A stretch of DNA of 64,000 nt, from the NCBI GenBank assembly GCA_963809535.1, contig CAWEJW010000003.1, forward strand, positions 116,031-180,030. Direction: 5' to 3'. Shown here piece after piece: positions 8,625 to 62,818 of the stretch. The translations under genes and the position numbers were made by a program. Within the stretch, counting starts at the first letter, position 1, and each line of letters opens with the position of its first letter. This DNA is from an uncultured Actinomycetes bacterium. GTDB taxonomy: Bacteria; Actinomycetota; Coriobacteriia; Anaerosomatales; CAVRZR01. The notes under the pieces were generated by a model. It had not been told where the DNA came from. It saw only the letters and a program-made list of their open reading frames with translations, and did not search any database.

Positions 8625-9307
8625 TGTCGAAGGCGACAGACAGCATGCGGGGTACTGAGCCAGACGCGGCAGCCACATCGATCGAATCCCACGCATTCGC
8701 CGACTCTATCGAATCGATCGAATCGCTCGAACCTGGCAGGCGCGGCGAGATTCTGGACGCGGCGCTCGCGGTCTTCGCCGAGAAGGGCTACTCGGGGGGT
8801 TCGATGCGCGACATCGCGACCCGCGTCGGCGTCAGCGAGCCGGCGCTCTATCGATACTTCGCCGGAAAGGAGGCCCTGTTCCTTGCGCTCGTGCGCGTGA
8901 TCGCGACTCATCTGCGCAACGAGGCCATCGACATCTTGAGAGCGGTCCAGCCCGAGTCTCTCCGCGTTCAGGTCGCCGCTGCCCTTGAGAACCGCCGGAA
9001 ACGCATAACCCTCGCCGTCCCGATGTTACGCACGATCCTTCCGGCCGCCGCGCACCACCCGGCTGTGCTAGCCGAGATCCGCACCGTCGTGCTCGAGCCG
9101 ATGCTGGGCGAGCTGGACACGAAGATCGCCGAACTCGATGCAGCCTTCGGCCTGGAACCCGACTCTGCGTCGCGTCGCACCCGCGTGCGCACGTTCATGG
9201 CGCTGTTCGTGGGCTCACTAGCTACCTCGGTGGTATTGGGCGACGAGCCCGACGAGGCCACCGTCGACGCGATCGTGCGCGTCATGGGCTGGGAGGGGCG
9301 GGTCTAG
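8621..9307 (+). CDS. TetR/AcrR family transcriptional regulator
   Basis: ILDAALAVFAEKGYSGGSMRDIATRVGVSEPALYRYFAGKEALF is a canonical TetR N-terminal HTH. Start overlaps the upstream TGA. Confidence 0.85.
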   Translation: MMSKATDSMRGTEPDAAATSIESHAFADSIESIESLEPGRRGEILDAALAVFAEKGYSGGSMRDIATRVGVSEPALYRYFAGKEALFLALVRVIATHLRNEAIDILRAVQPESLRVQVAAALENRRKRITLAVPMLRTILPAAAHHPAVLAEIRTVVLEPMLGELDTKIAELDAAFGLEPDSASRRTRVRTFMALFVGSLATSVVLGDEPDEATVDAIVRVMGWEGRV

Positions 9308-10680
9308 AGCGTGGCGGCCACGCTACGGGCCGCGACGATCCCGCTCGCGCTCGACTGCACGAGCCCGCGTGTGACACCCGCCCCGTCGCCGATAGCCCAC
9401 AACCCGGCGACGGGCGTCTGAAGCTCCGCGTCAACCTCGAGGCGCGAGGAGTAGAACTTCACCTCCACGCCGTAGAGCAGAGTCTCAGGCCCGGCGATAC
9501 CCGGCGCCAAAGCCTCCATCGCGTCGATGAACTCGATGACGTCCGTCAGATGCCGGTACGGCAAGACCGCGGCGAGATCACCCGGCGTCGCATACGGCAT
9601 CGTAGGCCGACCAGCCATATCGGCTATGCGCGTTGGGGTCGAGCGGCGGCCGGCCTTCAGATCGCACAGTCGCTGCATGAGGATGCCATCGCCGAGCAGG
9701 TTCGCCAGGTGCGCGATCTCACGGCCGTACGTGATCGGCTCCCGGAAGGGTTCTGTGAACGCCTGGCTGACGAGCACCGCAAAATTGGTGTACGCGGTCC
9801 TCTCCTCGGCGTACGAGTGACCGTTCACCGTCACGACGTCGCCGTACGACTCCGTCGTCACTTCGCCGTAGGGGTTCATGCAGAACGTCCGCACCGCGTC
9901 CCCGAACGTCGGCGAGCGGTACAGCAGCTTGGCTTCGTAGAGCGCCATCGTGAGCGGTTCCATCACCTCGGCGGGACACTCCACCCGCACGCCGATGTCC
10001 ACGGCGTTGCTCTTGAGAGGGACCTCGAGAACGCCGGCTTGGGCAGCGAGCCATTCGGCACCCTCGCGGCCGGGAGCAGCAATGACCGCATCCGCGGTGA
10101 CGATGCTTCCATCTGCCAGCTCGACGCCGGTCGCGCGACCTCCGCTCGCCAGGATGCGCATCACGTGGCAATCGGTGCGCACGTCGACCCCGACGCTAAC
10201 GAGGTAGTCGTGCATGGCGCCGAGCACCATGGGCGAGTGGTCCGTGCCCAGGTGGCGAATGCGCATCGGGACAAGGGTCATCCCCGCGTCCGCGGCCTTC
10301 TTCTCGAGAAGCTCGGCCTCGGGCGGTTCTGGCCCGTAGACCTTCGTGTCGGCTCCGAATTCGAGCCAGAGCCCGTCCGCGTAATCGATGAGCCGCTCGA
10401 GCTCGTCGCGCCCTACGCAGTCCGCGAGCCATCCGCCGACGTCAGCCGACAGCGTGAGCTTGCCGTCCGAGAAGGCGCCAGCGCCGCCCCAGCCGGTCAT
10501 GATGTCGCACTGTCTGCATCCGACGCAGTGGGTCTCTCGCGCGGGGCAGCTACGACGGTTGAGCGCATGGCCCTTCTCGGCCAAGAGCACCGGTCCGATG
10601 CCCGCGCGGACGAGCTCGATGGCTGCGAAGATGCCGGCCGGGCCGGCCCCGATGATGATGGCGCGGTGATGATCTGGCAC
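9304..10680 (-). CDS. FAD-dependent oxidoreductase (uncharacterised NAD(FAD)-utilising dehydrogenase type)
   Basis: HRAIIIGAGPAGIFAAIEL dinucleotide-binding motif at the N-terminus and a C-terminal GDGAGVTRG motif. I prefer GTG 10680 (GAAGGAG 5 nt upstream) over the ORF-track start 10716. Confidence 0.75.
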   Translation of the reverse strand: MPDHHRAIIIGAGPAGIFAAIELVRAGIGPVLLAEKGHALNRRSCPARETHCVGCRQCDIMTGWGGAGAFSDGKLTLSADVGGWLADCVGRDELERLIDYADGLWLEFGADTKVYGPEPPEAELLEKKAADAGMTLVPMRIRHLGTDHSPMVLGAMHDYLVSVGVDVRTDCHVMRILASGGRATGVELADGSIVTADAVIAAPGREGAEWLAAQAGVLEVPLKSNAVDIGVRVECPAEVMEPLTMALYEAKLLYRSPTFGDAVRTFCMNPYGEVTTESYGDVVTVNGHSYAEERTAYTNFAVLVSQAFTEPFREPITYGREIAHLANLLGDGILMQRLCDLKAGRRSTPTRIADMAGRPTMPYATPGDLAAVLPYRHLTDVIEFIDAMEALAPGIAGPETLLYGVEVKFYSSRLEVDAELQTPVAGLWAIGDGAGVTRGLVQSSASGIVAARSVAATL

Positions 10681-11133: not shown

Positions 11134-12516
11134 CTACGGCATCTTGGCCGGCTCGATGAACTTGGTGAACCGCTCGTTGAACACGAGCGGTATCGATCCT
11201 GTCGGCCCGTTGCGATGCTTCGCGATGATGAGCTCCGCCATACCCTTCGCAGGGCGTCCATCCTGGTCCTCGGCGTACAGATCCGTGTTGCGGTCGATGA
11301 ACATGACCACGTCGGCGTCCTGCTCGATCGACCCTGACTCACGCAGGTCCGAGAGCTGCGGCCGCTTGCCGTGGCGCTGCTCCACGGCGCGAGAGAGCTG
11401 CGAGAGCGCGAGCACGGGTGCGTCGAGTTCCTTTGCGAGGATCTTCAGCCCCCGGCTTATCTCCCCGATCTCGACGGTGCGGTTCGCTTCCGATCGTCGC
11501 GCCTGAGGCTGCATGAGCTGCAGATAGTCCACGACGACAAGGCCCTTCGGCTTGCCGCGCAGTTGCCGGCGCGCCTTGGTGCGTACCTCGAAGATGGAGA
11601 TCGCGGGCGTGTCGTCGACCCACAGGTCCAGCTCGGCCAGCCGTCCCATTGCCTGGTGTATAGAGCCCCAGTCCTGCTCCTTAATGTAGCCCGTGCGCAC
11701 GTCCTGCAGGTTGATGCGCGCCTCCGAGCACAGAACGCGCTGCACGAGTTGCTCGGCCGACATCTCGAGGCTGAACAACGCTACTGACGTGCCCTTCTTG
11801 GCCGCGTTGACGGCCATGTTCAGCGCCAATGCGGTCTTTCCGACGCTGGGTCGGGCCGCCAGGATCACGAGGTCGCCTGCGTGAAGGCCAGCGAGCAACT
11901 TGTCAAGGTCCTTGTATCCGGTGGGAACCCCGGTCACGTGCTCTTTGCGCTCGAACAGCTCCTCCAGTTGGTGAAACCCGATCTGGAGCAGCTCTTCCAT
12001 CGGCCGGAAGTTGCTCTCCACGCGCTTGCTCGTGACCTCGAAGATGAGGCGCTCCGAATCCTCGATGACTGCGTCGATGTCATCGGGCGCATCGAATCCC
12101 ATCGTCACGATCTGTGTGGCGGCTCCGATGAGCTGCCGAAGCATGGCGGTACGCTTCACGATCTGGGCGTAGCGCATCGCGTTGGCCGCCGTCGGAACGA
12201 TCTGCGTCACGTCGAGCAGGTACGGCTTGCCACCCGCAGCCTCGAGCTCGCCTGAAGCCTCCAGCCGGTCGGCGACACTCACGTGATCGATCGGTATCCC
12301 GCGCGCATAGAGGTGTTCCATCGCCGCGAAAATGCGCGCGTGCGCGGGACGATAGAAGTCCTGGGCAACGACAATGCTGAGCGCTTGCTCTACCGCTTCC
12401 GAGGACAAGAACATGGAGCCGAGCAGGGCTTGCTCGGCCTCGAGATTATGCGGCGGCACGCGTTCTGCCGAAGAGACCGCGCGAAGACGGGGCTCGCGCA
12501 CTGCGATTTCGCTCAT
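11134..12516 (-). CDS. dnaB: Replicative DNA helicase DnaB
   Basis: PPHNLEAEQALLGSM N-terminal motif; Walker A ARPSVGKTALALN; LVVVDYLQLM; C-terminal RNGPTG. ATG 12516 follows GGAGGG. No intein. Confidence 0.95.
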   Translation of the reverse strand: MSEIAVREPRLRAVSSAERVPPHNLEAEQALLGSMFLSSEAVEQALSIVVAQDFYRPAHARIFAAMEHLYARGIPIDHVSVADRLEASGELEAAGGKPYLLDVTQIVPTAANAMRYAQIVKRTAMLRQLIGAATQIVTMGFDAPDDIDAVIEDSERLIFEVTSKRVESNFRPMEELLQIGFHQLEELFERKEHVTGVPTGYKDLDKLLAGLHAGDLVILAARPSVGKTALALNMAVNAAKKGTSVALFSLEMSAEQLVQRVLCSEARINLQDVRTGYIKEQDWGSIHQAMGRLAELDLWVDDTPAISIFEVRTKARRQLRGKPKGLVVVDYLQLMQPQARRSEANRTVEIGEISRGLKILAKELDAPVLALSQLSRAVEQRHGKRPQLSDLRESGSIEQDADVVMFIDRNTDLYAEDQDGRPAKGMAELIIAKHRNGPTGSIPLVFNERFTKFIEPAKMP

Positions 12517-12573
12517 GTCGTGACCCTCCAGGTACCGACAGCGCACGCCACATGCATGCGTCCGGCTCTGGTG

Positions 12574-12773: not shown

Positions 12774-13403
12774 CTACTCGTCGGCGTAGTCCTCTGCCAA
12801 GGCCTCGACGACCTCGTCCTCGGCACTCTCGATCTCAGCGACCTCGGTGATCTCGTCAGCTTCGGCCGCGGCTGCCTCCGCCGCGGTCTCATCCGCCGCC
12901 ATGACGTCAACGACCTCCGTGGGCGTGCCGGACGCAACGAACGTCTCTGGCGCCGCACCCTCGGGGACGACATTCACGGTCAGGTGAGCCTTGACCTCCC
13001 GATAGATCGTAACCTCCACGGGATGTGCGCCGAGCTCCTTGATGTGTCCGTGCGTCTCGATCTTGCGGCGGTCGATCTTCACACCCAGCTGGGCGGCGAC
13101 AGCGTCCTCGATCATCTGGGCCGTGATGGATCCGTAGAGCCGACCCTCGTCGCCGACTTTCGCCTCGACGCCCACGCTCTTGCCTTCGAGTGAGCCCACG
13201 ACGCCGCTCGCATCGGCCAGGCGTACCTCGTCGCGCTTACGCACGTTGTGCATGCGCGCATCGAGCTGCTTCAAGTTGCCCGATGTCGCCTCGATGGCGA
13301 CCTTTCGCGGCAACAGGTAGTTCACCGCGAACCCGCGGGCGACTTCGATGACGTCGCCTTCGGCTCCGCGACCCTTGAGCTCCTGTAACAGGATGACTTT
13401 CAT
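12774..13403 (-). CDS. rplI: 50S ribosomal protein L9 with an acidic C-terminal extension
   Basis: MKVILLQELKGRGAEGDVIEVARGFAVNYLLPRK. ATG 13403 follows GAGGAG. About 60 extra Asp/Glu/Ala-rich residues at the C-terminus. Confidence 0.93.
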   Translation of the reverse strand: MKVILLQELKGRGAEGDVIEVARGFAVNYLLPRKVAIEATSGNLKQLDARMHNVRKRDEVRLADASGVVGSLEGKSVGVEAKVGDEGRLYGSITAQMIEDAVAAQLGVKIDRRKIETHGHIKELGAHPVEVTIYREVKAHLTVNVVPEGAAPETFVASGTPTEVVDVMAADETAAEAAAAEADEITEVAEIESAEDEVVEALAEDYADE

Positions 13404-13455
13404 AGATACTCCTCGTTCGTTCGCAGAGCTCGTGCCCTGCGACAACGCCACTACA

Positions 13456-14415
13456 CTAGATGCTGCCCGGCGGTTCCTCGAGACTGATCGGCTTGGCCGA
13501 TGCTTCTCTCGGCAGGCGCCGGAAATTGGCCCAGAAATCGAGCATTCCGACCAGGCTCACGATCAACAGGAACTGGTCGAGGATCCACAGAACGATGTAC
13601 AGCGCGACCATCTTGACATAGCCGCTCTTCGGGACGTCGAAGAGTGCAGAGACGACGGCGACTCCCTGTATGAAGAACAACGTGCGCGCGATGTACAGCG
13701 CGTTGAACCCGACGGCTCGCGCCACCGCCGTGTTCGCGCCCAGAAGGGACGCCGCAGCAACCGCAACGAGCCCGATAACGAACGGCCAGAGCACATGCAC
13801 GCTCAGGTCGAGTTCCTTGGCGGCGGGTACCGCAATTTCGACGCCACTCCGGCGCGCGGCCCATGCGATGGCTGCAATGACGAAGATGGCCACGAAGATC
13901 GCGCTCTGCACATAGAACGACGGCCACAAGCTGACCAGCACAGGCCGCAACGTCGCGAGCTGATCCGATAGGTTCGCAGCGCTCGACCCGAGCGCTTGCC
14001 TCAGGCCCTCGGTCAAGGTCACTGCCTGGGCACGCATCGCCTCCATAAGCGACTGGCCCACCGACCGCGCCGACAAGGCGTCGGCTGCAATCGCGCTTCC
14101 GGCTATCGCCAGCGTCAGCACGAGTCCGACGAACTGGGCAGAATGCGTGCGCAACAGCCACACGGCAAGCAGTACCGCCGCGGACACCGGGATGGCGAAG
14201 GCAGCCGAGTGCGGGAACACAGCCGCCGCAAGCGCGGCGCCCGTGAGCGCAGCGACAATGCTGGCCACCGTTCTCCCCCCATAGGCAAGGCCCGCTGCGG
14301 CTGCGGCTGTGACCGGCAGGCCAACGTAGGGGAACTGCGGCGCGACCACAACGCCGGCCGCACACGCGACGCTCAGCAGCGCGGTGTCGCGCATGCTTAT
14401 GACCCGATCGGACAT
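13456..14415 (-). CDS. Polytopic membrane protein, YybS/DUF2232-like by position and topology
   Basis: Eight or more hydrophobic helices. It sits between rpsR and rplI, as yybS does in Bacillus. The family assignment rests on synteny only. Confidence 0.6.
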   Translation of the reverse strand: MSDRVISMRDTALLSVACAAGVVVAPQFPYVGLPVTAAAAAGLAYGGRTVASIVAALTGAALAAAVFPHSAAFAIPVSAAVLLAVWLLRTHSAQFVGLVLTLAIAGSAIAADALSARSVGQSLMEAMRAQAVTLTEGLRQALGSSAANLSDQLATLRPVLVSLWPSFYVQSAIFVAIFVIAAIAWAARRSGVEIAVPAAKELDLSVHVLWPFVIGLVAVAAASLLGANTAVARAVGFNALYIARTLFFIQGVAVVSALFDVPKSGYVKMVALYIVLWILDQFLLIVSLVGMLDFWANFRRLPREASAKPISLEEPPGSI

Positions 14416-14427
14416 TCGGCGGAGCCT

Positions 14428-14691
14428 CTACCTACGGCGACCGTCGACGCGGCCACTCACAACCGGAACGGCGTACGGGACGAGAGCCATCTCGCGGGCG
14501 CGCTTGACGGCCATCGCGAGCTCGTGCTGGTGCTGCGCGCAGTTGCCGGAAACCCGGCGGGGCTTGATCTTGCCTCGGTCGGTCATGTACCTGCGCAGCA
14601 TCTGCGCGTCCTTGTAGTCGATGTAGTCGACGTGGTCCTTGCAGAACTGGCAGTACTTGCGCCTGGGCTTACGGGCGTAATCTGCTGTCAT
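14428..14691 (-). CDS. rpsR: 30S ribosomal protein S18
   Basis: [44 protein letters not shown]. Confidence 0.95.
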
Positions 14692-14781
14692 GCTGGCGTG
14701 CCTCCTTCCGCGGAGAACGCGGTTGTTGCGGTGCGGACGGCGGGAGGGGCCCGCCGACCGCGTCGTTGTAGTGCCAAACCC

Positions 14782-15189
14782 CTAGAACGGGATCTCGTCG
14801 CCGGTCTCGTCGGTCGGCGCGGCCTCGGGAGCGGCGTACGGTGCTCCGGACCCGCTGTCCCGCGACGTCATGAACTCGATCTCGTCGGCGATGATGTCGA
14901 CCTTGGAGCGCTTGTCGCCCTGAGGGGTCTCCCACTGATGCCAGCGGAGACGACCTTCGATCGCGACCTTGGAACCCTTGCTGAGAAAGCGGGACAGTGC
15001 TTCAGCCCGCGCGCCGAAGATCGACACGTCGAAGAAGTTCGGTACGTCTTCCCACTGCCCGGACTCCTGGTTCTTACGACGGTCGTTGACAGCCACACCA
15101 AGGCCGAGCACGGACGTGCCGCTCGGCGTCGAGCGAAGCTCAGGATCCCTCGTGAGGTTCCCGCTGATGACAACCCTGTTGATACTCAT
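14782..15189 (-). CDS. ssb: Single-stranded DNA-binding protein
   Basis: MSINRVVISGNLTRDPELR OB-fold start, Gly/Pro-rich tail, acidic tip DEIPF. Confidence 0.95.
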   Translation of the reverse strand: MSINRVVISGNLTRDPELRSTPSGTSVLGLGVAVNDRRKNQESGQWEDVPNFFDVSIFGARAEALSRFLSKGSKVAIEGRLRWHQWETPQGDKRSKVDIIADEIEFMTSRDSGSGAPYAAPEAAPTDETGDEIPF

Positions 15190-15251
15190 GTCTACCCACC
15201 TTCATTCGTCACGGACCTGCGTCACGGCGCGGCGCGCCCGCGTTCACCGTG

Positions 15252-15545
15252 CTAGTCACGGTCCTCGCGGTGCACGAGCATGTAGCGCACAACGCCGTCG
15301 GTGATGTGCAGCACGCGGTCCAACTCGGCGATGGCGGCAGGAGCGGAATGGAAGTCGATGACGGTGTAGTCGCCCTCGGTGAGCTTGCCGATCTCGAAGG
15401 CAAGCTTGCGCTTGCCCCATCCTTCGACATTGTCCACGACGCCCCCGTCGGCGGTGATCACGCCCTGGATCTTCTCCAGGACGGCCGCGCTCTCCTCCTC
15501 GTCGAGGGAGGGGTTCAACAGGAGCAACAACTCATAAGCCTTCAT
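15252..15545 (-). CDS. rpsF: 30S ribosomal protein S6
   Basis: MKAYELLLLLNPSLDEEE...WGKRKLAFEI. Confidence 0.95.
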   Translation of the reverse strand: MKAYELLLLLNPSLDEEESAAVLEKIQGVITADGGVVDNVEGWGKRKLAFEIGKLTEGDYTVIDFHSAPAAIAELDRVLHITDGVVRYMLVHREDRD

Positions 15546-15626
15546 GTGTCACCTCCCTTGGGCTAGAACGGCCCCGGGACTCTGAAGGCGAAATGCCCGG
15601 AGCAGGAAATGAGCCTGCGCAGTGTA

Positions 15627-16757
15627 TCATCGGCCCGCCGCTGCTGCAATCTCGCCCCCCACGGGTGCGACACAGGGCCCAGGCTCTTCGACTGATTCAG
15701 CCCGCCGCCACAACGGCCACAGCGCTCCCGCCGCGGCCAGCAGGGCGATCGTGGCAACGAACCACGCACGCACGAGACGGCTCAACGTACGACCGGCCGC
15801 GGGCACACTCCGATTTGTCACTGAGGTGAGAAGCTTCTCGAACGACGACCTGAAGCTGCCAGCCGACGCCGAGTCCGCGCCGACGGCCGCAGCGCCCTGT
15901 TGGCCCGCCGCCTCACCGAATCGACTGCCGGTCGTGCGCGTGTCTCGTGCGAGCCTCAAGTCGGGAATCTCGATGACGGTTCGCACCGTCGACTCGCGCT
16001 CACTCGTCGCTCGCGCCACGGTGTTGGGTTCGGGAGCCCTCGACCGAGCGGCGGACGCGACCTCCGCGACCGATGCTGCGTGCGATGCCGCGCGAGGCTC
16101 CGAACGCCCCGCCGCCTCTGCGGTGGTAGGCTGCGCGGCGCTGCTCGGGCCCTGTTGTGTCCTGGCCGTCCCCGCCTCAGGCGTTCCGCCAGTTGATGAA
16201 CCGGCACCCAGGTACTCGAGCGGGTCGACGTAGAGTTCACCTCGGCGTGCTCCCACGTGGAGATGGACGTCGGCCGAGGACGCATCGCCCTGCCCCGCGA
16301 CCTCTCCCATTGACGTCCCGGCTTCCAGTCGGGTGCCCGCGGGCACGCATACCGAATCGAGCGGCATGAGCGTGAACCGCAGGCCGTCGTCTCTCTCGAT
16401 CGTCAGGGCACGTTGGGTTCCAGAGAGGCCCACCGCCGGGATGCTCCCCACAAATCGCACCACACCTGCGCACGGCGAGAGAACGCGGTCGCCCGACTCG
16501 GCGGCCAGGTCCACGCCGCGATGCGTCACCGGTCCGCCGTCTGCGCCCGTGTACGTGCCGCCGAACGCTACAAGGACGTCCGCCGGGACTTCGAGCGGCC
16601 ACTCAGCACTCTCAGCACGCGCGGTGAGCGGCTGCCCTAGCCAGGCAGCCAGAACCAGAACCAGAACCGCGACGATCGGAGCGGCAGCAACCTGATGAGA
16701 AGAGAAACGCATGACGCCACCCACCTTCCTCGTGGTGGAAGGGAGACTGGGGGGCAT
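15627..16757 (-). CDS. M23 family metallopeptidase, membrane anchored, with a long low-complexity tail and a C-terminal TM
   Basis: HRGVDLAAESGDRVLSPCAGVV ... DVHLHVGARRGELYVDP (HxxxD and HxH M23 motifs). Start is either ATG 16757 (possibly leaderless) or ATG 16712 (AGGAAGGTGGG RBS). Confidence 0.8.
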   Translation of the reverse strand: MPPSLPSTTRKVGGVMRFSSHQVAAAPIVAVLVLVLAAWLGQPLTARAESAEWPLEVPADVLVAFGGTYTGADGGPVTHRGVDLAAESGDRVLSPCAGVVRFVGSIPAVGLSGTQRALTIERDDGLRFTLMPLDSVCVPAGTRLEAGTSMGEVAGQGDASSADVHLHVGARRGELYVDPLEYLGAGSSTGGTPEAGTARTQQGPSSAAQPTTAEAAGRSEPRAASHAASVAEVASAARSRAPEPNTVARATSERESTVRTVIEIPDLRLARDTRTTGSRFGEAAGQQGAAAVGADSASAGSFRSSFEKLLTSVTNRSVPAAGRTLSRLVRAWFVATIALLAAAGALWPLWRRAESVEEPGPCVAPVGGEIAAAAGR

Positions 16758-16760
16758 CTA

Positions 16761-16774
16761 CGAACATATGTTCG
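16761..16774. promoter_or_regulatory. Perfect Cheo-type LexA (SOS) box CGAACATATGTTCG
   Basis: 14-bp perfect palindrome equal to the Gram-positive consensus CGAAC-N4-GTTCG. It contains TATGTT and lies 3 nt upstream of ATG 16757. A weaker CAAACCCGCGTTCG lies at 16796-16809. Confidence 0.6.
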
Positions 16775-16870
16775 CCATGGATCGCGCGAACCCTGCAAAC
16801 CCGCGTTCGGTCGTGCTCCGCGTGTACCGGACGTGGATCTCACACGGCGCTGGGAGCGCGCCCACAAGTA

Positions 16871-16892
16871 AGGCCGCCCTGCTGGGCGGCCT
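16871..16892 (-). terminator. Hairpin downstream of tRNA-Gly
   Basis: 9-bp perfect stem AGGCCGCCC/GGGCGGCCT with loop TGCT. Weak U tract. Confidence 0.4.
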
Positions 16893-16903
16893 GGTCCCTT
16901 TCC

Positions 16904-16979
16904 TGGAGCGGGCGACGGGTCTCGAACCCGCGACCTAAAGCTTGGGAAGCTTTCGCTCTACCAACTGAGCTACGCCCGC
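16904..16979 (-). tRNA. tRNA-Gly (anticodon CCC), CCA encoded
   Basis: Folded by hand: acceptor GCGGGCG/CGCCCGC, D arm GCTC-AGTTGGTA-GAGC, anticodon loop TTCCCAA, T arm GCGGG-TTCGAGA-CCCGT, discriminator T plus CCA. 76 nt. Confidence 0.93.
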
Positions 16980-17015
16980 GTGCAGCGCGCCGCGGCGCGC
17001 GCCGAGTAGTCTACC

Positions 17016-17621
17016 CTAGGCTCGCGCACGCGTCACGACGCCGCGAATGTGCCCGGCCCTGTGCCGTCTGTCGGCTTGCCAGAGGACGATAGCGAGGAGC
17101 GAGAGCACGATCGCCAGCGCGACCTTCCAACCGCGGACGTAGTCGATGGCGTGGTGGCCTGCAGTGATCAGTCTGAGCTCGGAGGCGTGAATGTCCATGT
17201 CCCCGCCGTGCTGAGCACAGGCTGCGTTGAACGTCCCACGTACTTCGACGATATCCCCCTCGTGCTTGTAGTCGCCGAAGATCGTGACTTCCCGCGCGAG
17301 GCTCGCCGGAATCCACACGGGCATGCCGGTGTTGTAGCCGCCGAGGGCTGCCCCCTCCTCAACATTCTTGACGTAGTAAGCGTCATCGTTGAGATGAAGC
17401 CACGCGTACGCTCCCCGGACCATGGCCTCGCCTATGGCCTCGCCCCTGAACGGTATGACCTGTCCGTCCCAGGTCTTCGGGTGTTCGATGAGATCGCCGC
17501 TCGCCGGCGCGTTCGGGCTGAGAGCTGGCGGCGGCGCGCTCTTCGCAAGCGCACTGGCGGGCGCCACCAGCACTGCCAGCAGCACCAGAAGAACTAGGCA
17601 CGCGTACACGCGGGACTTCAC
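17016..17621 (-). CDS. Exported, C-terminally membrane-anchored hypothetical protein, translationally coupled to trkH
   Basis: GTG 17621 overlaps the trkH TAG (TAGTG), with GAGGGGG upstream. Signal peptide VKSRVYACLVLLVLLAVLVAPASALA and a C-terminal TM. The ORF-track N-terminal extension overlaps trkH and is rejected. Confidence 0.6.
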   Translation of the reverse strand: MKSRVYACLVLLVLLAVLVAPASALAKSAPPPALSPNAPASGDLIEHPKTWDGQVIPFRGEAIGEAMVRGAYAWLHLNDDAYYVKNVEEGAALGGYNTGMPVWIPASLAREVTIFGDYKHEGDIVEVRGTFNAACAQHGGDMDIHASELRLITAGHHAIDYVRGWKVALAIVLSLLAIVLWQADRRHRAGHIRGVVTRARA

Positions 17622-19123
17622 TAGCGCCCCCTCAGCACTGAGTATCCGTATCCGAACAGCGCGAACACGGACATGAACTCGAGGCGCCCGAGCCACTGCT
17701 GAAGGATGTACATCACCTTCATGAGTGCGGGCATCAGAGGTGACGTTACTCCGCACGAGAGACCGGTGTTCGATCCAGCCGACACTGCTTCGAACGCGGC
17801 TTGCACGAAGTCGTATCCGTACAACATCCCGACGATCGCGCCTATCGCGTACATCGTCAGATACGCGATAGTGATCGTCATCGCCGTCCGCACAACTGCG
17901 TCATCGAGCCAGACGTCCCGTACGTGGTGATACTTCGCGCGAACGACAGCGGACTCCGGAGAGATCATCTTTCGAACATCCTGGATGAACGCCTTCGTAA
18001 TGACCCCAACACGAATGCCTTTGATGCCGCCGGCGGTTGAACACGCAGAGGCCCCTATCGCCATCGCGATCGTCGTCGCGATGAGGCCGACGGGACCCCA
18101 TTGCGTCACAAACGCTCTCGAGTAGATCGTTGAGAAGCCGGTCGTCGTGTGACCAGAGGCGAGCTGGTAGAAGGCCTTCCTGAAGAGGGCCATTGCATCC
18201 GAGTACACACCCATCTTCCCGAGCCAGAACGTAGCGACGAGAGTGGTCGCAGTGAGCGTGATGGCGAAGGACACGGTTTCGATGTTGCGCGTGATCTCTC
18301 TTCGGTTGCCGGTCCACACGGCCCAGTGCATCGCAAAGTTGAACGAGCCGGCGATGAAGATGACGACCGCTAGCACTTCGTACAAGAGCGAGTGGTACCA
18401 CATCGTGTTGTATGACTGCGGCGCGAATCCTCCTGTCGACCAAGCGCCCATGAACACCCAGAGGCCGTGGAAGAAGGCGCGTACCGGCCCCTGGCCGAGC
18501 CACCAGCCCGCCGCGAAGAGCGCGAGCGTGCCGACGACCAGCCAGGTCAGCGAAACGAGCCAGATCGCCCTCGCCGTCTGAATGACGTTGGGAAGCAGCC
18601 GCTCGTCCTTGCCTTCGCCGACGTACACCTTGTAAGCGCCAGCCGTGCCTTTGAACAGGAAGGTCAGCGCAATGACGACGATCCCCTGGCCGCCTGCGTA
18701 GGTGAGCAGGTGTCTCCACATGTTGAGCCCGTTGCTCACGTGATCGAGGTCCTGCAGCAGATAGAGGCCCGTCGTCGTGTACCCGCTCATGACGTCGAAC
18801 ATCGCGTCGAGGTAGCTGCCCTCGTGACCCGACAGGAAGTGCGGGAGCGCCCCCAGCGCCGTGGCGACGATCCAAGAACCGGCTGCCACGACCAGCCCGT
18901 GGCTCCACTTCAGGTCCTTGTCCGTCTTGAAGAAGTACTGCACCCCGAAGCCGAAGACCATGCACGCCGCGATGCTGATGACGAAATCGACGACTGTGTC
19001 CCACTCACCGAAAACGATTGACACCATGAGCGGAACGACCATCAACAGACCTACGCCAACGATAACCTTGCCGGTGTAGGTTGCGATAACGTAATGGTCC
19101 TCGCGGCGAGGTCGGACGATCAT
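17621..19123 (-). CDS. trkH: TrkH/KtrB family potassium uptake membrane protein
   Basis: 500 aa, polytopic, with repeated M1-P-M2 units carrying SGYTTTG, GGFAP, SGHTTTGFS and AGSNTGLS selectivity-filter-like motifs. Confidence 0.9.
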   Translation of the reverse strand: MIVRPRREDHYVIATYTGKVIVGVGLLMVVPLMVSIVFGEWDTVVDFVISIAACMVFGFGVQYFFKTDKDLKWSHGLVVAAGSWIVATALGALPHFLSGHEGSYLDAMFDVMSGYTTTGLYLLQDLDHVSNGLNMWRHLLTYAGGQGIVVIALTFLFKGTAGAYKVYVGEGKDERLLPNVIQTARAIWLVSLTWLVVGTLALFAAGWWLGQGPVRAFFHGLWVFMGAWSTGGFAPQSYNTMWYHSLLYEVLAVVIFIAGSFNFAMHWAVWTGNRREITRNIETVSFAITLTATTLVATFWLGKMGVYSDAMALFRKAFYQLASGHTTTGFSTIYSRAFVTQWGPVGLIATTIAMAIGASACSTAGGIKGIRVGVITKAFIQDVRKMISPESAVVRAKYHHVRDVWLDDAVVRTAMTITIAYLTMYAIGAIVGMLYGYDFVQAAFEAVSAGSNTGLSCGVTSPLMPALMKVMYILQQWLGRLEFMSVFALFGYGYSVLRGR

Positions 19124-19133
19124 GAGGCGGTTC

Positions 19134-19292
19134 TCACCAGATCGCCATCGCTAGGACCGCAAGGCCGAATGCGATGAGGGTGAGGGCAAGGATGAACAAC
19201 GTTTCGGTGAGCAGTCCCGCCGAGTACCGGCCCCAGTGCTCATGAGCGGTGAGGGTCGGGTATCCCTCTTCGAGATTCGAGCGATCAGCCAT
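19134..19292 (-). CDS. Small single-TM protein (52 aa) between trkA and trkH
   Basis: Own translation: MADRSNLEEGYPTLTAHEHWGRYSAGLLTETLFILALTLIAFGLAVLAMAIW. ATG 19292 follows GGGAG. Fills the trkA-trkH gap. Below the ORF-track size cutoff. Confidence 0.45.
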   Translation of the reverse strand: MADRSNLEEGYPTLTAHEHWGRYSAGLLTETLFILALTLIAFGLAVLAMAIW

Positions 19293-19296
19293 GCTT

Positions 19297-19962
19297 CTAC
19301 GCTCCCGTCAGCGCCTTCTTCAGCGCCCTCTCGTGAGCGACGTTCGTGAATGCTATGACGACGTCGCCCGGAAGCAGCTCCGTGTCGCCGTGCACGGTCA
19401 TGGCCTCCTCGCCTCGAACGATCGCGACGAGCACGCAGTCGCTCGGTAGGTCGAGTGAGGCAACGGCCTTGTTGCAGACAACGCAACGATCGGTTGGAAG
19501 CTCGATCTCTACGATCGCCATGTTGCCCTTGCGGAGCGAGGCTAGCGTCCGGATGTCTCCGACGGTAGCCTCCTCCTCAATCATCCTGGAGATGATCGTT
19601 GTGGACGAGATCGCCTCTATGCCAAGCGCGTTGAAGATATGTTCATTCTTCGGGTTGTTCACCCGAGCGACCGCGCGCGGCACCCCGAAGGCCACCTTGG
19701 CGAGCTGGCAGGCGACGAGGTTGTCGTCGTCGTCGCCCGTGACCGCTGCGAAGACGTCGGCGCGCGCCACCCCCGCGTCCTCCTGATAGGCAGCATCGCA
19801 TCCATCTCCCTGGATGATGAGCGTGCGCGATGGCAGTTCCTGGGCCAACTTGTCGACGACCTCATCGCGCTTCTCGATGAGGGCCACATCGTGGTTCGCC
19901 TCGAGGAGCGTGCGCGCGAGGTAGGACGCCACCTTGCCCCCGCCGTTGATGACGATGTACAC
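19297..19962 (-). CDS. trkA: TrkA family K+ uptake regulatory protein (RCK N + C domains), copy 2
   Basis: VYIVINGGGKVASYLARTLLEANHDVALIEK Rossmann start. GTG 19962 follows GGAGGAG. The ORF-track 371-aa version is an upstream over-extension. Confidence 0.88.
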   Translation of the reverse strand: MYIVINGGGKVASYLARTLLEANHDVALIEKRDEVVDKLAQELPSRTLIIQGDGCDAAYQEDAGVARADVFAAVTGDDDDNLVACQLAKVAFGVPRAVARVNNPKNEHIFNALGIEAISSTTIISRMIEEEATVGDIRTLASLRKGNMAIVEIELPTDRCVVCNKAVASLDLPSDCVLVAIVRGEEAMTVHGDTELLPGDVVIAFTNVAHERALKKALTGA

Positions 19963-19964
19963 GG

Positions 19965-20606
19965 CTACTCCTCCATGTACCGTTCGAGCTTCGAGAACGC
20001 CGTTTCCTTCACCCCGGCCATGATGATGTCCCCCGCCTGTAGGACCGTGTCGTCGAAGGGGACTAAAGTCGAGTTGCCGCGCGACATCGCGACGACGCGG
20101 CAGCCGCTCTCGGCCTCCATCTCGCGAACCGTCCGCGTGTCGGCGAGCCGGTTCGCTTTGAACTCCAGGATCTCGACGTCCCCGAGTGCTGAGATGTGGT
20201 GTCCGTGTCCCGCCTTGATCTTGTCGAGAAGGTTCTCCGCGACGAGCGTCGTGCCGCAGACGTAGTCGAGCCCCAACTGCTGGTACGTGCGCTCCCGGAC
20301 GGGGTTGTACAGGCGTGCCACCGCGTGCTTGACGCCGAAGATCTTGCGCGCCACCTCGGCGGCCATCAGGTTCGTGTTGTCTAGGTCGGTGACCGCGGCG
20401 AAGGAGTCGCACTCACGGATTCCGGCTTCAGCGAGGACATCCTCGTCGAAGCCGAGTCCGCGAATCGTTACGCCGTTGAACGTCGTGCCCAGGCGACGGA
20501 ACGCGTCGCCGTCCTTGTCGATGACCGTGACGTTGTGGCCCTCGACCGAGAGCAGGTTCGCGAGCTGCGATCCGACGCGCCCGCAGCCGACCACGATGAC
20601 GTTCAT
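19965..20606 (-). CDS. trkA: TrkA family K+ uptake regulatory protein (RCK N + C domains), copy 1
   Basis: MNVIVVGCGRVGSQLANLLSVEGHNVTVIDKD. ATG 20606 follows AGGAGG. Confidence 0.88.
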   Translation of the reverse strand: MNVIVVGCGRVGSQLANLLSVEGHNVTVIDKDGDAFRRLGTTFNGVTIRGLGFDEDVLAEAGIRECDSFAAVTDLDNTNLMAAEVARKIFGVKHAVARLYNPVRERTYQQLGLDYVCGTTLVAENLLDKIKAGHGHHISALGDVEILEFKANRLADTRTVREMEAESGCRVVAMSRGNSTLVPFDDTVLQAGDIIMAGVKETAFSKLERYMEE

Positions 20607-20764
20607 CAACCGCCTCCTGCGAGACACGCGTTTGCCGCTCGGGCGCTATCGGTGACCGAACGGTGGGCCGCTCGGCGTCTGAGTATTCTTTGCGCCACCT
20701 TAACTGTCTTTCGGCCCGCATGCGAGCACAGTTATCCGTGACCGTATGCGAAGGCGGACGCACG

Positions 20765-31125: not shown

Positions 31126-34014
31126 CTAGCCGCAGAAGCGGCGCCCGACGGTCGCAGCCATGTCCTCTGTCGTCAGGACCTCGATGTCGTTCACCGGAAG
31201 CGCCGAGAGGAACTCGCGGCCGTAGCGCTTAGGACCGAGCACTCGCGTGTCGGCGATGACGAGTCCGCCGGTGTCGGTACTGCTCCGGATGAGCCGGCCC
31301 GCTGCCTGTTTGAGCTCGAGGATGGCCTCCGGGAGGTAGTAGTGCTCCCACGCGCGCGGGTCGCGCTCGCGGCGTTCCTCGTAGAGAGGGTCTTTCACCT
31401 GACCGAACGGGAGTCGGGGCACGACTACACACCTCAGCGTGTCTCCCTTGGCGTCGAAGCCCTCCCAGAACGACTTGGTCGCGAACAGCGAGAGCTTCTC
31501 GTCGGCGATGAACTCGTCGCGGAGACGTTTCGCCGAGGTGCCCCGGCTCTGCATGAGCAGGTTGATCCCCTGCGCCTCGAGTCGCGGTGCGAGCACGTCG
31601 AAAAGCGTTTCCATGTCGCGCCGGTTGGTGAAGAGCGTGAGAACCGAGCCGCCCATGGCGAGGTGAAGGCTCTCGAGGAGTGCCTCGAGGTTGCCCAAGT
31701 ACTCCCTGGTCCCAGGCGGTGACACGTCACTCGGCACGAACACCGACATCTGTGTATCGAAGTCGTAGGACGAAGCGAGTCTCAAGCTGCGCCAGGAGTC
31801 TTCGGGCAGGCGGTCGAGACCGACTCCGTGGGCGAAGAAGCCGAAGTCCTCTCCGGCGGCCAGGGTCGCCGACGTGAAGATCGCCGAGTGAGTGCGGCCG
31901 TAGAACTCCTCCGCGAGGAGCTCTCCAACGTCGAGTCTCGCGGCCTTCAACTGCTCGGCATCGACCGTCCTTCGGCGGTCGAGCCTCACGGAGTAGACGA
32001 ATTCGTCGGCCTCGCCGTCCAAGACCATGACCAGCCCTTCATACTGCTCGGCGAGGCGCGAGAGGACTCCGACAAGGTCGGCGCGCACTTCGAGCAGCGG
32101 TTCGTCATCGGCTTCGATCGCTGTCACGAGCTCGCGGCCGTCGGCGAGCAGCTCCTCGAGACGCTTGGCTAAGCTCTTGCCCACGCCGGCGGCGATACTC
32201 CAGGGGCCGCTGTCCCGCACGGGAGGCGTTAACCTCAGGTCGCACGCGTCGTACTCGGTGGCGGGCACGAGTGCGCCGAGGTCCTTGACGAAATCGAAGA
32301 ACGAGTCGGCGAGTGTGGCAGCTCGGGTAGCCACCTCCTCGATGCGGGAAATGAGCGCGAGCGCCGGGGTGGCGTCAGGCCTCGCCGCAACGTGGCGACG
32401 CAGGACCTCGAGAACGCCGCCGCGCATGCCGCTCAGCGCGGCAAGCACGGAGGTGAGCTCTGCGTGGCTGGTTCCGAGCGTGAGCTGCTTGCGTGCCTCG
32501 GCTTCCGCGGCGTGTGCCTCGTCGAGCACCCAGTGGCGGATCGGTGGAAGGATGCCACCGGCCGCCACGACGTCACGGAAGAGCAGCGCGTGGTTGGTGA
32601 CGATGACGTGCGCGCTCGCAGCCCTGCGCCTGACTCCGTGCAGGTAGCACAGGTACGGGTAGTAGCGGCATCGCTTCCTCGTACAGTCGGCCTGCGTCGC
32701 CTGCACAGAGGAGCGGAGCTCGCGCCGCCAGTGCACGTTGATCGCGTCCAGATCCCCCCACGATGACTGCGCGACCCACGAGTGGAGCGCCGCAACAGTC
32801 GCAAGAGTATCCCCGTCCGCCCCCTCGAGCTCGCCCGCCAGCCGGTCGAGCTTCCGCAGGCAAACGTAGTGTTCGTAGCCCTTGAGCGAGACATACTCGA
32901 GCTCGCCCAAGTCGGCCTCGGCCAGTGCGGCCGCGAGCTTCGGGAGCTCGTGATACACGAGTTGGTCCGTAAGGGAGTTGGTCTTTGTCGCAACGCCGAC
33001 CGGCACCCGGTTCGAGAGTGCAAAGAGCGCTGCCGGAACGAGATAGGCGATCGACTTGCCGACGCCCGTCCCGGCTTCGACCGCCAGGTGCGTCCTGGTC
33101 GAGAAGGCTTCGAGCACGGCTTCGGCCATCCGGGTCTGCTCGTCGCGGCTCTCGAAGCCCTCGTACATGCGGCCGACTAGACCATCCGAGCCGAAATGGG
33201 AGCACACCTCTTCGGCGGCGGGGCAGACACACGCCACGTCGTCAGCGTCGTCGAAGGCCTCGCCGCGCTGCGCTCGTACGTGGTGGCGGAGGTCTTTCAG
33301 ATCGAACGGGCGTGCCGACTTGCCCGCCGCGTGGTGAGCGATGATGCGTCGCAGCGGCCATGCGGTATCCGAGCCCAGTGATGCCAGGCGCGTCACGAGG
33401 GCAGGTGGAAGTGCGTCGAGCGCGCACAGCAGCACTCTCCACACGAAGGCGAGTGCCTCAACGTCGTCGGCGGCGCGATGCGTTGGCGACGACGTGCCGA
33501 ATGCCTCCGCAAGGTCGCGGAGCCGGTGAGTTCGAAGCCGGGGCAGACCGATCCTGGCGAGCTGAAGGCTGTCGATCCACGCGCCGGGGAACGCGGTCGT
33601 TCCCGCAACTCGGGTGATGAACGCGCGGTCAAAGGCGACATGGTGTGCGACGACGTCGCGTCCTGCGACGAACTCAGCCAGCTGACCGACGGCGGCTTCC
33701 ACACTCGGCGCACCTTTAAGATCGACGTCGGCGATGCCGGTGAGCCGCGTCGTCTCGAGCGGCACCGCTCGCTGAGACGCGACCATGGTGTGGAAGCGCG
33801 CGAGGATGTCGGGCCCGTGCATGAGGGCCGCGGCGATCTCTATTATCTCGTCGCGGTCGGGGTCGAAGCCTGTCGTTTCGATGTCGACGATGACGATCTC
33901 GTCTTCGAATCCGAAGACTGCGTCATGCGCCTGTCCGGCCAGAGAAGCGTAGGATTCGGCGACCGCGGGGTCCGTGCCCGGAACTATGAATCGATTCAGC
34001 GCGTCCTCAGTCAT
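31126..34014 (-). CDS. dinG: DinG-family helicase with an N-terminal DEDD 3'-5' exonuclease domain
   Basis: IVIVDIETTGFDPDRDEIIEIAA (Exo I); Walker A EAGTGVGKS; DEAH box VLDEAHAAE; Fe-S Cys set YVCLRK...DCTRKRCRYYPYLCY; C-terminal helicase motifs. Confidence 0.88.
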   Translation of the reverse strand: MTEDALNRFIVPGTDPAVAESYASLAGQAHDAVFGFEDEIVIVDIETTGFDPDRDEIIEIAAALMHGPDILARFHTMVASQRAVPLETTRLTGIADVDLKGAPSVEAAVGQLAEFVAGRDVVAHHVAFDRAFITRVAGTTAFPGAWIDSLQLARIGLPRLRTHRLRDLAEAFGTSSPTHRAADDVEALAFVWRVLLCALDALPPALVTRLASLGSDTAWPLRRIIAHHAAGKSARPFDLKDLRHHVRAQRGEAFDDADDVACVCPAAEEVCSHFGSDGLVGRMYEGFESRDEQTRMAEAVLEAFSTRTHLAVEAGTGVGKSIAYLVPAALFALSNRVPVGVATKTNSLTDQLVYHELPKLAAALAEADLGELEYVSLKGYEHYVCLRKLDRLAGELEGADGDTLATVAALHSWVAQSSWGDLDAINVHWRRELRSSVQATQADCTRKRCRYYPYLCYLHGVRRRAASAHVIVTNHALLFRDVVAAGGILPPIRHWVLDEAHAAEAEARKQLTLGTSHAELTSVLAALSGMRGGVLEVLRRHVAARPDATPALALISRIEEVATRAATLADSFFDFVKDLGALVPATEYDACDLRLTPPVRDSGPWSIAAGVGKSLAKRLEELLADGRELVTAIEADDEPLLEVRADLVGVLSRLAEQYEGLVMVLDGEADEFVYSVRLDRRRTVDAEQLKAARLDVGELLAEEFYGRTHSAIFTSATLAAGEDFGFFAHGVGLDRLPEDSWRSLRLASSYDFDTQMSVFVPSDVSPPGTREYLGNLEALLESLHLAMGGSVLTLFTNRRDMETLFDVLAPRLEAQGINLLMQSRGTSAKRLRDEFIADEKLSLFATKSFWEGFDAKGDTLRCVVVPRLPFGQVKDPLYEERRERDPRAWEHYYLPEAILELKQAAGRLIRSSTDTGGLVIADTRVLGPKRYGREFLSALPVNDIEVLTTEDMAATVGRRFCG

Positions 34015-46655: not shown

Positions 46656-47915
46656 TCACGACGTCGAGGGTCTCCGCCGACGGCCGGCGGCTTCCCGCCG
46701 GGGCGCTTGCACGGGACACAAGTTGCCGAGCGCCGGACACTCCCGACACGTACGTTGGCCGTAGCTCAGCCGAGGCTCGAATGAACCGTCGGCGATCGAC
46801 GAGATGATCCCGTCGATCCGCGACCGCAGTGCGGCCAGCTCGTCCCTGCTATACGAGAAGCGCTTCTCGCTCGCGCCTGCCTCGGGTTTGAAGAAGACGA
46901 CCTCGGCGTCCTCCACCGAGGGCATTGCCTCGAAGACGGCGAGGGCATAGCACACTGATTGAAGCTGCCACCGCTCGATCGCGTCCGACGTAGTCTCGGC
47001 CGTACCGGTCTTGTAGTCGACCACGTGCGCGCGGTGCCCCGTCAGCGCGATCAGGTCCATGGCTCCGTTCAGTGTTGTGCCGTTCACGTCGACGCCGAAG
47101 GGCGCCTCGCGAAGGACCGTCGAGGCGCCGAGGACCTCACGCGCCAGAGGACTGTCAAGAAAGGACTGGGCGGCACCACGCACGCGCTCGAGGGCCACGT
47201 CGTCGAGTCCCAGTCGCTCTCCAATCGCCTTGAGCCGGTCTGCGGGAGGAATGTCGGGGCCTGCAAGCCGCAGCGCCTGATGGACTGCGGTGCCCACGGC
47301 TCGCGCACTCTCCGGCTCGTCGATCTCCTCAAAGGTACCTACCTTGGCAACGTACGTGGCGTAGTAGCGATATGGGCAGTCAACGTAGGCCTGGAGGCCC
47401 GTGTACGAGATCCTTACCGGTCGCGCATGCAGCTGGTCCGGCTCTTTGGCATCAACGACGTCGTGGTCTGCCGCCGGCGACTCGATACCGTGAACGCACG
47501 CCGCCGTCCGTCGGACGTCCTCGAGGACGGGTCCGCAACGGGGGGTCGCACGTTCCACCCGGATCGTCGCGCTGCCCAACCGCGCGTAGAACGACGTGGT
47601 GCCGTCCTCATCGTTGACATCGTCGCCGCCCTCCGTGGCGCGCGCGTCCTCTGACGTCTCGGCAGCACCTCCGCCGATGCGAATGCCCGCCGCCTGCAGG
47701 ATCCAGCCGATGGGCCGATCGGCAGGTATCTCCTTCTGCGAGTCCACGACCGAGAACATCGCGAGCGCCTGGGTGGCACGGGTACACGCGACGTACAGGA
47801 CGCGCTTGGCTTCCTCCAACTCGCGTGCGGCCCGCCACTCGCGGACGGCGACAGAGGACGCCGTATCGCGGCATCCCGTGTACTCTTCGCCGTGTCGGAA
47901 GGCGCACCGCGAGGG
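46656..47915 (-). CDS. addA: AddA-like helicase-nuclease, C-terminal part (motif VI + RecB-type nuclease), in a different frame from the N-terminal part
   Basis: The frame is open from 47915: AFRHGEEYTG...ELEEAKRVLYVACTRA (UvrD motif VI). Nuclease domain has CPYRYY ... VVDYKTG ... CRECPALGNLC. The ORF track starts at internal TTG 47819. Confidence 0.7.
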   Translation of the reverse strand, partial: PSRCAFRHGEEYTGCRDTASSVAVREWRAARELEEAKRVLYVACTRATQALAMFSVVDSQKEIPADRPIGWILQAAGIRIGGGAAETSEDARATEGGDDVNDEDGTTSFYARLGSATIRVERATPRCGPVLEDVRRTAACVHGIESPAADHDVVDAKEPDQLHARPVRISYTGLQAYVDCPYRYYATYVAKVGTFEEIDEPESARAVGTAVHQALRLAGPDIPPADRLKAIGERLGLDDVALERVRGAAQSFLDSPLAREVLGASTVLREAPFGVDVNGTTLNGAMDLIALTGHRAHVVDYKTGTAETTSDAIERWQLQSVCYALAVFEAMPSVEDAEVVFFKPEAGASEKRFSYSRDELAALRSRIDGIISSIADGSFEPRLSYGQRTCRECPALGNLCPVQAPRREAAGRRRRPSTS

Positions 47916-56761: not shown

Positions 56762-56764
56762 CGC

Positions 56765-61476: not shown

Positions 61477-61561
61477 TGTCGTTGCTTGTTGATAAGAGTG
61501 TTGGCAACGCGTGGTCAGTGTGTTGGCCGATTCGCGAGTATTGTGAGTTCTCGTCCTATGG

Positions 61562-61653
61562 TGGGGACAGTGGGGATAACACTGAAGTTTTGTCCACAGG
61601 ACGAACAAGGTGGCCACACCGCTAGCAAGCAGGGATTATGATGCTCTTCCACA
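61562..61653. other. oriC DnaA-box cluster 2 (dnaA-dnaN intergenic) with an adjacent AT-richer stretch
   Basis: 61562-61570 CTGTCCCCA(rc), 61571-61579 TTATCCCCA(rc), 61590-61598 TTGTCCACA, 61645-61653 TCTTCCACA. Followed by ATATGCAC...TTACACTTAGACAAGG up to the dnaN RBS. Confidence 0.7.
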
Positions 61654-61708
61654 TATGCACAGCGCCTACTACTGAGATGGTTACACTTAGACAAGGAAGG
61701 AACACTAG

Positions 61709-62806: not shown

Positions 62807-62818
62807 CGAGAGCCGAGC

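Follow-up and report, generated by a model that had tools for sequence, protein, structure and literature searches.

A LexA-type operator probably places a membrane-tethered cell wall peptidase of an uncultured actinobacterium under the control of the cell's response to DNA damage (the SOS response). Here we describe this operator, which lies in the promoter of an M23 peptidase gene within a stretch of 64,000 nucleotides (nt), hereafter the window, from a member of the Coriobacteriia (order Anaerosomatales; GenBank assembly GCA_963809535.1, contig CAWEJW010000003.1, positions 116,031 to 180,030). We consider it probable that LexA represses the M23 promoter and that DNA damage derepresses an intact, membrane-tethered M23 endopeptidase; the palindrome is most likely a true LexA operator overlapping the core promoter, and the specificity of the site points to LexA as the protein that would bind it. 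The elements concerned, in window coordinates, are as follows.

16761-16774, minus strand: LexA-type operator (Cheo or SOS box) CGAACATATGTTCG in the promoter of the M23 gene, the sole exact match in the window and conserved in 12 of 13 orthologous loci.
16793-16798, minus strand: -35-like TTGCAG, 18 nt upstream of the box, a candidate -35 element.
16713-16760, minus strand: 5' untranslated region (UTR) of the M23 mRNA, about 48 nt, with a C-rich stretch predicted to pair with the Shine-Dalgarno region.
15627-16712, minus strand: M23 peptidase gene, 361 amino acids (aa), with a probable signal peptide, an M23 domain, a disordered linker, a C-terminal transmembrane (TM) helix (LWPLWRR) and a 24-aa tail.

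The palindrome CGAACRNRYGTTCG is the consensus of Gram-positive and actinobacterial LexA operators (the Cheo box). The original prediction had placed a perfect copy of it on the M23 promoter, and this is borne out: the box agrees with the consensus at 14 of 14 positions, and CGAACATATGTTCG, as read on the plus strand, is the only exact CGAAC-N4-GTTCG in the window. A closely similar motif, tCGAAC-N4-GNNCGa, has been defined for LexA of Streptomyces venezuelae by chromatin immunoprecipitation sequencing and surface plasmon resonance (PMC9380542). A single occurrence of the box is not significant alone, because dinucleotide shuffles give 0.14 exact matches per window (at least one match in 14 of 100 shuffles); with one mismatch allowed, the window holds nine matches versus 4.4 expected. 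What sets the box apart from chance is its conservation, for 12 of the 13 orthologous promoters have it at the corresponding position.

A genome scan, a metagenome scan and several contig look-ups supplied the orthologous loci, and 13 distinct loci with readable upstream DNA were compared (the window, L001-L007, L010 and L014-L017); the metagenome-assembled genomes of the orthologs are labelled Coriobacteriia or, unreliably, Eubacteriales. The M23 family is rare, with 30 matches among 5.8 billion clusters. The sequence (C/A)GAACA-NNY-GTTCG stands 58-70 nt upstream of the start codon in 12 of the 13 syntenic loci (the window, L001-L005, L007, L010 and L014-L017), and these box-bearing loci cover protein identities from 82% down to about 30%, the lowest being that of P0017 from L010. 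Absence of the box from orthologous loci, which the original prediction had named as evidence that would speak against it, is thus confined to L006. Alignment of the 12 promoters on the box shows no variation at positions 2-6 (with A at position 6) and 10-14, a C at position 1 in 11 of the 12, and T or C at position 9 throughout; positions 7 and 8 vary, giving the centres ATAT, ATGT, ATGC, ACCT, AAGT, ATAC, ACGT and ACAC. All 12 fit CGAACRNRYGTTCG at positions 2-6 and 9-14, and 11 of them also at position 1. Mean pairwise identity is 0.98 in the half-sites and 0.61 in the centre but falls to 0.36 and 0.41 in the flanking 40 nt upstream and downstream, respectively. Across the 193.8 kb of the window and the distinct loci together, GAAC-N4-GTTC occurs 12 times against 1.9 expected from base composition, and every one of these sites is an M23 promoter box. 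As far as aligned sequences can tell, a dimeric regulator with LexA specificity has left a textbook phylogenetic footprint here; fixed half-sites, A at position 6 and a pyrimidine at position 9, beside a variable centre and flanks, are what one would expect of a dimeric repressor of that specificity. One further protein, P0019 (L018, 10001-11113), was rejected as an ortholog on account of its different context (rsmI-M23-metG) and the lack of a box. It is a distant paralog of 370 aa with an M23 domain and a C-terminal hydrophobic segment, in a genome of 72% GC, and it serves as a negative control.

The box-bearing promoters show two layouts. In layout A (the window, L001, L002, L005, L007, L010, L014 and L015), exactly 18 nt separate the end of (T)TTGCAGG from the box, which is itself followed by TA; TTGCAG is found at this identical distance in seven of the eight loci, and L007 reads GGGCAG(G) there. 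We regard TTGCAG as a credible -35 hexamer in this organism, because the promoter of the downstream rpsF operon, TTGCAG-17-TACACT, uses the same hexamer. A spacing of 17-19 nt from TTGCAG would put the -10 hexamer on the left half-site and the -10/start region within the box. In layout B (L003, L004, L016 and L017), TTGAA(C/T/G) or TTGTGC is followed by 17 nt, by TA(G/C)(T/C)AT and then directly by (T)CGAACA, as in TTGAAC-17-TAGTAT of L003 and TTGAAT-17-TACTAT of L004 (the hexamers of L016 and L017 are weaker), and the box covers the predicted transcription start region. Binding of a LexA dimer would keep RNA polymerase off the promoter in either layout, and RecA-stimulated self-cleavage of LexA after DNA damage would relieve this repression.

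Three details of the original prediction for this promoter fared less well than the box itself. TATGTT, which it had taken for the -10 hexamer, lies inside the variable centre of the box, is not conserved and is 24 nt from the conserved -35-like TTGCAG, and this assignment has to be abandoned. The weaker second box that it had reported, CAAACCCGCGTTCG at 16796-16809, does exist with one mismatch, but a role as operator was rejected: the left half of the site (CGAACGCGGGTTTG on the minus strand) is conserved neither in L005, the closest ortholog (74% identity), nor in L001, L002 and L014, and the conserved part is GTTTG only, which belongs to the -35-like GTTTGCAGG. Finally, a minus-strand ATG at 16757-16755, 3 nt past the box, does open the longest open reading frame (ORF; 15627-16757, 376 aa) and is in frame in the window, but the leaderless start that had been proposed there is not real. 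This ATG is absent in L001, L003, L004, L007, L010 and others; its position reads AGG in L001, ACC in L010 and AGA in L007, and layout B lacks it altogether. In L005, the two ATGs are separated by a C-run with one base fewer, which brings the upstream ATG out of frame, and in L002 it is likewise out of frame and then meets a stop codon (manual reading of the sequence). This 1-nt indel between L005 and the window shows that 16713-16760 is non-coding. The true start is almost certainly ATG 16712 (MRFSS..., 361 aa), upstream of which lies the Shine-Dalgarno sequence GGAAGGTGGGTGG (16717-16729). The downstream ATG and its Shine-Dalgarno sequence are common to all orthologs, all of which align from that methionine, and the database protein P0001 has the same start and the same 361-aa sequence.

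The leader that results from this start may add a second level of control. In every ortholog (equivalent UTRs from 11 loci), the minimum free energy fold has the C-rich stretch paired with purine-rich sequence that immediately precedes the ATG, and RNAalifold, on a rough alignment, finds seven pairs, six of them with compensatory changes. This pairing suggests translational damping, and possibly a translational brake, in which the C-rich segment would occupy the Shine-Dalgarno sequence and so act as a second brake on expression beside the operator. The coincidence of a perfect-consensus operator with this leader pairing would suit a product whose mistimed synthesis does harm.

The product itself has the features of an intact M23 enzyme. 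Pfam PF01551 matches it with E=2.5e-12 and 47.3 bits (cut-off 28.7) over profile positions 2-96 of 96; Pfam and NCBIfam scans of the protein give no domain besides M23, and the NCBIfam M23-type matches are weak. The zinc and catalytic motifs HxxxD and HxH are present as THRGVD and HLHVG, and the same stretches align to solved M23 domains. An 18-member family alignment shows no change at H64, D68 or H152 and at least 90% conservation of H150; because all zinc ligands are conserved, catalysis appears to be under selection. The AlphaFold2 model consists of a helix at residues 10-26, a beta domain at 41-170 (predicted local distance difference test averages of 84-97 per 10-residue block), disorder at 170-309 (about 140 residues), a long helix at 305-338 and a disordered tail, and Foldseek relates the beta domain with probability 1.00 to LytM, the LytM domain of EnvC, Csd (Csd1/2/3), ShyA and lysostaphin. 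Pfam and AlphaFold2 agree with the original prediction in the M23 domain, the long disordered region and the C-terminal TM helix, but the N-terminal TM segment that it had assigned looks like a cleavable signal peptide, with an n-region, an h-region and A-x-A (LTARA followed by ESAEWPL in the window, A-x-A followed by GWPL in the family). The segment is probably a signal peptide, and its cleavage would leave the C-terminal helix as the sole anchor of the mature protein, with RR and the 24-residue tail facing the cytoplasm. The protein would then be exported and kept at the membrane by this helix, and the flexible linker of about 140 residues would let the zinc-dependent endopeptidase domain reach the peptidoglycan.

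The C-terminal module, encoded by the last 70 codons (15630-15839 in the window), combines a TM helix containing the invariant LWPLWR with a tail of the form ...V(G)x(E/D)(I/V)AAAxGR. When 1.84 billion representatives were searched exhaustively with the last 70 residues, 14 proteins were returned, always as C-terminal matches, and among 10 further matches to the module that were scanned, eight are M23 proteins and two (P0047 and P0055) are probably fragments. A general sorting signal, which such a TM helix and tail might have formed, was ruled out, since the module is confined to the C-termini of this M23 family. Its TM motif, invariant and specific to the family, hints that the protein has a particular partner in the membrane. 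In the tail, the (I/V)-A-A codons overlap the -35 hexamer of the rpsF promoter, and conservation of the tail may in part be a constraint at the DNA level.

How does this gene compare with known systems? Its operator resembles the LexA operators of Gram-positive bacteria and Actinomycetota in the consensus, in half-sites separated by a 4-nt centre, in its predicted core-promoter position and in conservation among orthologs, and differs from them in its target, as the literature searched contained no LexA-regulated M23 peptidase. Among SOS division inhibitors, yneA and chiZ adjoin lexA. The known Gram-positive inhibitors are small proteins, anchored in the membrane and directed at the wall, that stop peptidoglycan synthesis at the septum; YneA targets FtsW through its TM segment and inhibits through its wall-binding domain (PMC13396833). 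With YneA of Bacillus subtilis and ChiZ (Rv2719c) of Mycobacterium tuberculosis, the M23 protein shares a LexA-type box, a conserved TM segment and, by prediction, a single membrane pass and an extracellular part directed at peptidoglycan. Unlike them, it has 361 aa and is not small, it combines a probable signal peptide with a C-terminal anchor where YneA and ChiZ have an N-terminal anchor, and it carries a catalytic domain and no LysM (by Pfam and NCBIfam) where they carry LysM. Its gene is flanked by tRNA-Gly and rpsF in all loci, with no lexA in the 64-kb window or in the ortholog flanks (up to 10 kb). Pfam and NCBIfam detect no homology to YneA or ChiZ, and by sequence the M23 protein is not a member of their family, although it may still work like them. 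With MepM/YebA, ShyA and LytM/lysostaphin, it shares the M23 fold, the HxxxD and HxH ligands and, by prediction, action on peptidoglycan cross-links; those enzymes, however, are not known as LexA-controlled and have N-terminal anchors or none, and the C-terminal LWPLWRR anchor with its long disordered tether is specific to this small M23 family. The degenerate LytM factors EnvC, NlpD, DipM and SpoIIQ have the same fold and roles in division or septal remodelling, but they have lost the metal ligands and act as activators or scaffolds, whereas the protein described here keeps all ligands.

For the physiological role, we tentatively favor an SOS wall effector that is harmful if unregulated and that delays septum completion or cell separation during repair. 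We lean to this proposal because the tight double repression is combined with an invariant, family-specific TM segment that recalls YneA; such an effector would act like YneA and ChiZ, but through catalysis instead of LysM binding. A more specific form of it, to which we give somewhat less credence, is that the active endopeptidase serves as the SOS checkpoint effector of this lineage, with the LWPLWRR helix directing it to a septal synthase, where it would cut nascent septal cross-links and thereby stall division. Two considerations count against such a role. The protein is large and enzymatic and its gene is not next to lexA, and every Gram-positive SOS division inhibitor known to us differs in being small, non-enzymatic and encoded next to lexA. 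In addition, M. tuberculosis cells become shorter when the M23 enzyme Rv0950c is lost (PMC8594824), as would suit an elongation function rather than an arrest of division.

The last observation also speaks for the alternative that we hold to be about equally likely, and just as tentative, as the septum-delaying role, namely a 'space-maker' endopeptidase like the membrane-anchored MepM/ShyA, which would be raised in the SOS response so that the wall expands while something else blocks division; the enzyme would then support the growth of filaments and not be an inhibitor of division in its own right. This proposal is consistent with selection on catalysis, as indicated by the conserved zinc ligands, with the match of the fold to the active endopeptidases ShyA and LytM, and with the box-free ortholog of L006, which suggests a role beyond the SOS response as well. 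It accords less well with the perfect operator and the leader, which together suggest a product kept tightly off, unusual for a benign growth enzyme, or with the TM motif and the specific membrane partner at which it hints.

The LexA control might instead be aimed at genes further downstream, a possibility for which the surroundings of the M23 gene have to be considered. The neighbouring elements are as follows.

16904-16979, minus strand: tRNA-Gly(CCC), directly upstream of the M23 gene and co-oriented with it (ARAGORN; Rfam tRNA, 70 bits).
16873-16892, minus strand: GC-rich hairpin GGCCGCCC-N4-GGGCGGCC after the tRNA, read from the sequence.
15621-15649, minus strand: rpsF operon promoter TTGCAG-17-TACACT (TTGCAG at 15649-15644, TACACT at 15626-15621), straddling the M23 stop codon.
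12774-15545, minus strand: rpsF, ssb, rpsR, a DUF2232 gene and rplI, identified from ORFs, Pfam and ortholog gene tables.
11134-12546, minus strand: dnaB, downstream of rplI.

No divergent gene lies at the box, whose upstream neighbour is the co-oriented tRNA with its hairpin; the upstream tRNA was also seen in the sequence read for L001-L007 and L010, and equivalent hairpins follow it in L001, L002, L003 and L010. The hairpin has a weak T-run and was not called a terminator by the consensus scan; it is probably the tRNA terminator, insulating the M23 promoter from the tRNA, and the box would then sit on the sole promoter between this terminator and the M23 gene. A sub-threshold Rfam match to YrlA at 16924-17028 on the minus strand (26.9 bits versus a gathering threshold of 69, E=0.013) overlaps the tRNA and most likely reflects the tRNA-like portion of the YrlA model; besides the tRNA, Rfam finds nothing above threshold in the M23 region.

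Read-through from the M23 promoter into rpsF-ssb-rpsR-DUF2232-rplI-dnaB could raise SSB, with ssb and dnaB as the real targets of LexA and the M23 gene as a passenger. In Escherichia coli, ssb is under LexA control and SSB rises after damage. The order M23-rpsF-ssb-rpsR is kept in all loci long enough to show it, and a scan of 15400-17100 called no terminator-like site, the 81-nt gap between the M23 gene and rpsF included. We nevertheless consider this unlikely. The rpsF operon has a highly conserved promoter and leader of its own at the M23 stop codon (TGA at 15629-15627, within the promoter), and because that promoter is strong, a weak SOS promoter 1.1 kb upstream would add little to ssb; moreover, the distance of the box is fixed relative to the start codon of the M23 gene and not to rpsF. 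The promoter, as TTGC(A/C)G-17-TACACT, and the leader were found in the window and in L002-L005, L007, L014 and L017. Promoter and leader occupy 15546-15650 of the window (minus strand). The leader of about 80 nt (gcgcaggctcatttcctgctccgggca...cccggggcc...agcccaagggaggtga) is nearly identical where the M23 genes are only 30-75% identical, and is much better conserved than the M23 gene. It has no Rfam match at E<=1 and may be an undescribed actinobacterial autoregulatory leader of rpsF (S6:S18).

Further from the M23 locus, yidC and jag/EloR (NCBIfam-confirmed) lie at 56003-57472, and because these two genes occupy 56-57.5 kb, the window is probably near the replication origin; three ORFs at 60079-63895 fit dnaA, dnaN and recF by their sizes and order alone. 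In L010, a Lit-family gene and a DUF5679 gene (8675-10001) directly precede the tRNA-M23 locus; in the window (17016-20627), an uncharacterised 246-aa ORF and putative Trk potassium-uptake genes intervene between the two, a local rearrangement upstream of the tRNA.

Several observations weigh against LexA control of the M23 gene as such. Searches by tblastn with the LexA proteins of M. tuberculosis and B. subtilis found no lexA in the window or the fetched loci, and about 25 window ORFs scanned with NCBIfam and Pfam included no S24/LexA protein. No second SOS gene with a box was found in the 194 kb of the window and fetched loci, although the absence of other sites there is uninformative, because about one region per genome was covered. 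The other box-like sites of the window (up to two mismatches) are mostly intragenic, and none lies upstream of the following genes.

31126-34014, minus strand: DinG-like fusion (RNase_T exonuclease and Helicase_C_2).
47608-53057, minus strand: AddAB-like pair (UvrD-type helicase and PD-(D/E)XK nuclease).

The literature searched likewise held no description of LexA or an SOS system in Coriobacteriia. In the promoter itself, a convincing -10 hexamer cannot be made out in layout A, and the consensus scan calls no promoter; we infer occlusion of the window promoter from its geometry alone. Finally, L006 (1640-1735) is a syntenic ortholog with the tRNA-Gly upstream, the same UTR hairpin and a retained promoter (TTCGTG-17-TAGGGT), but it has GATCTGACAAGCGCGA at the position of the box. 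It is a natural case of loss, or non-acquisition, of the operator, and because gene and promoter persist there without the box, LexA control is not obligatory for the M23 gene.

That neither lexA nor a second gene with the motif was found in 194 kb would also be expected if the palindrome were bound by a regulator other than LexA, or if the lineage were without LexA, in which case the gene would stand outside the DNA-damage response. We regard this as improbable: the consensus half-sites of LexA and both semi-conserved inner positions match across the 12 loci (position 1 in 11 of them), LexA is to our knowledge near-universal in Actinomycetota, and no other regulator of Actinomycetota that recognises this motif is known to us. 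Least probable of all is an SOS-triggered autolysin that would degrade the wall upon heavy damage and cause lysis or the release of vesicles or DNA, as SOS-induced endolysins of defective prophages do, for although a predicted active M23 hydrolase under tight double repression would suit it, neither a holin nor phage genes lie nearby, the synteny with tRNA-Gly and ribosomal-protein genes is strict, and the dedicated TM tether would restrict the reach of the enzyme.

The Gram-positive SOS division inhibitors are fast-evolving, and for large parts of Actinomycetota none is known. Streptomyces, for example, has no recognisable homolog of them (PMC9380542). What is new here is an SOS-type box on a wall-directed, membrane-anchored protein that has a catalytic M23 domain and a new kind of anchor. 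Although its significance is limited by a lineage that is uncultured and small (about 20-30 sequences in billions), a strictly conserved LexA box on a tethered, intact peptidoglycan endopeptidase would tie the DNA-damage response directly to enzymatic remodelling of the wall. The M23 protein is also a concrete candidate for the checkpoint effector that one lineage has been missing, and if it does act at the septum, an enzymatic stall of division would represent a new mechanistic class of DNA-damage division inhibitor.

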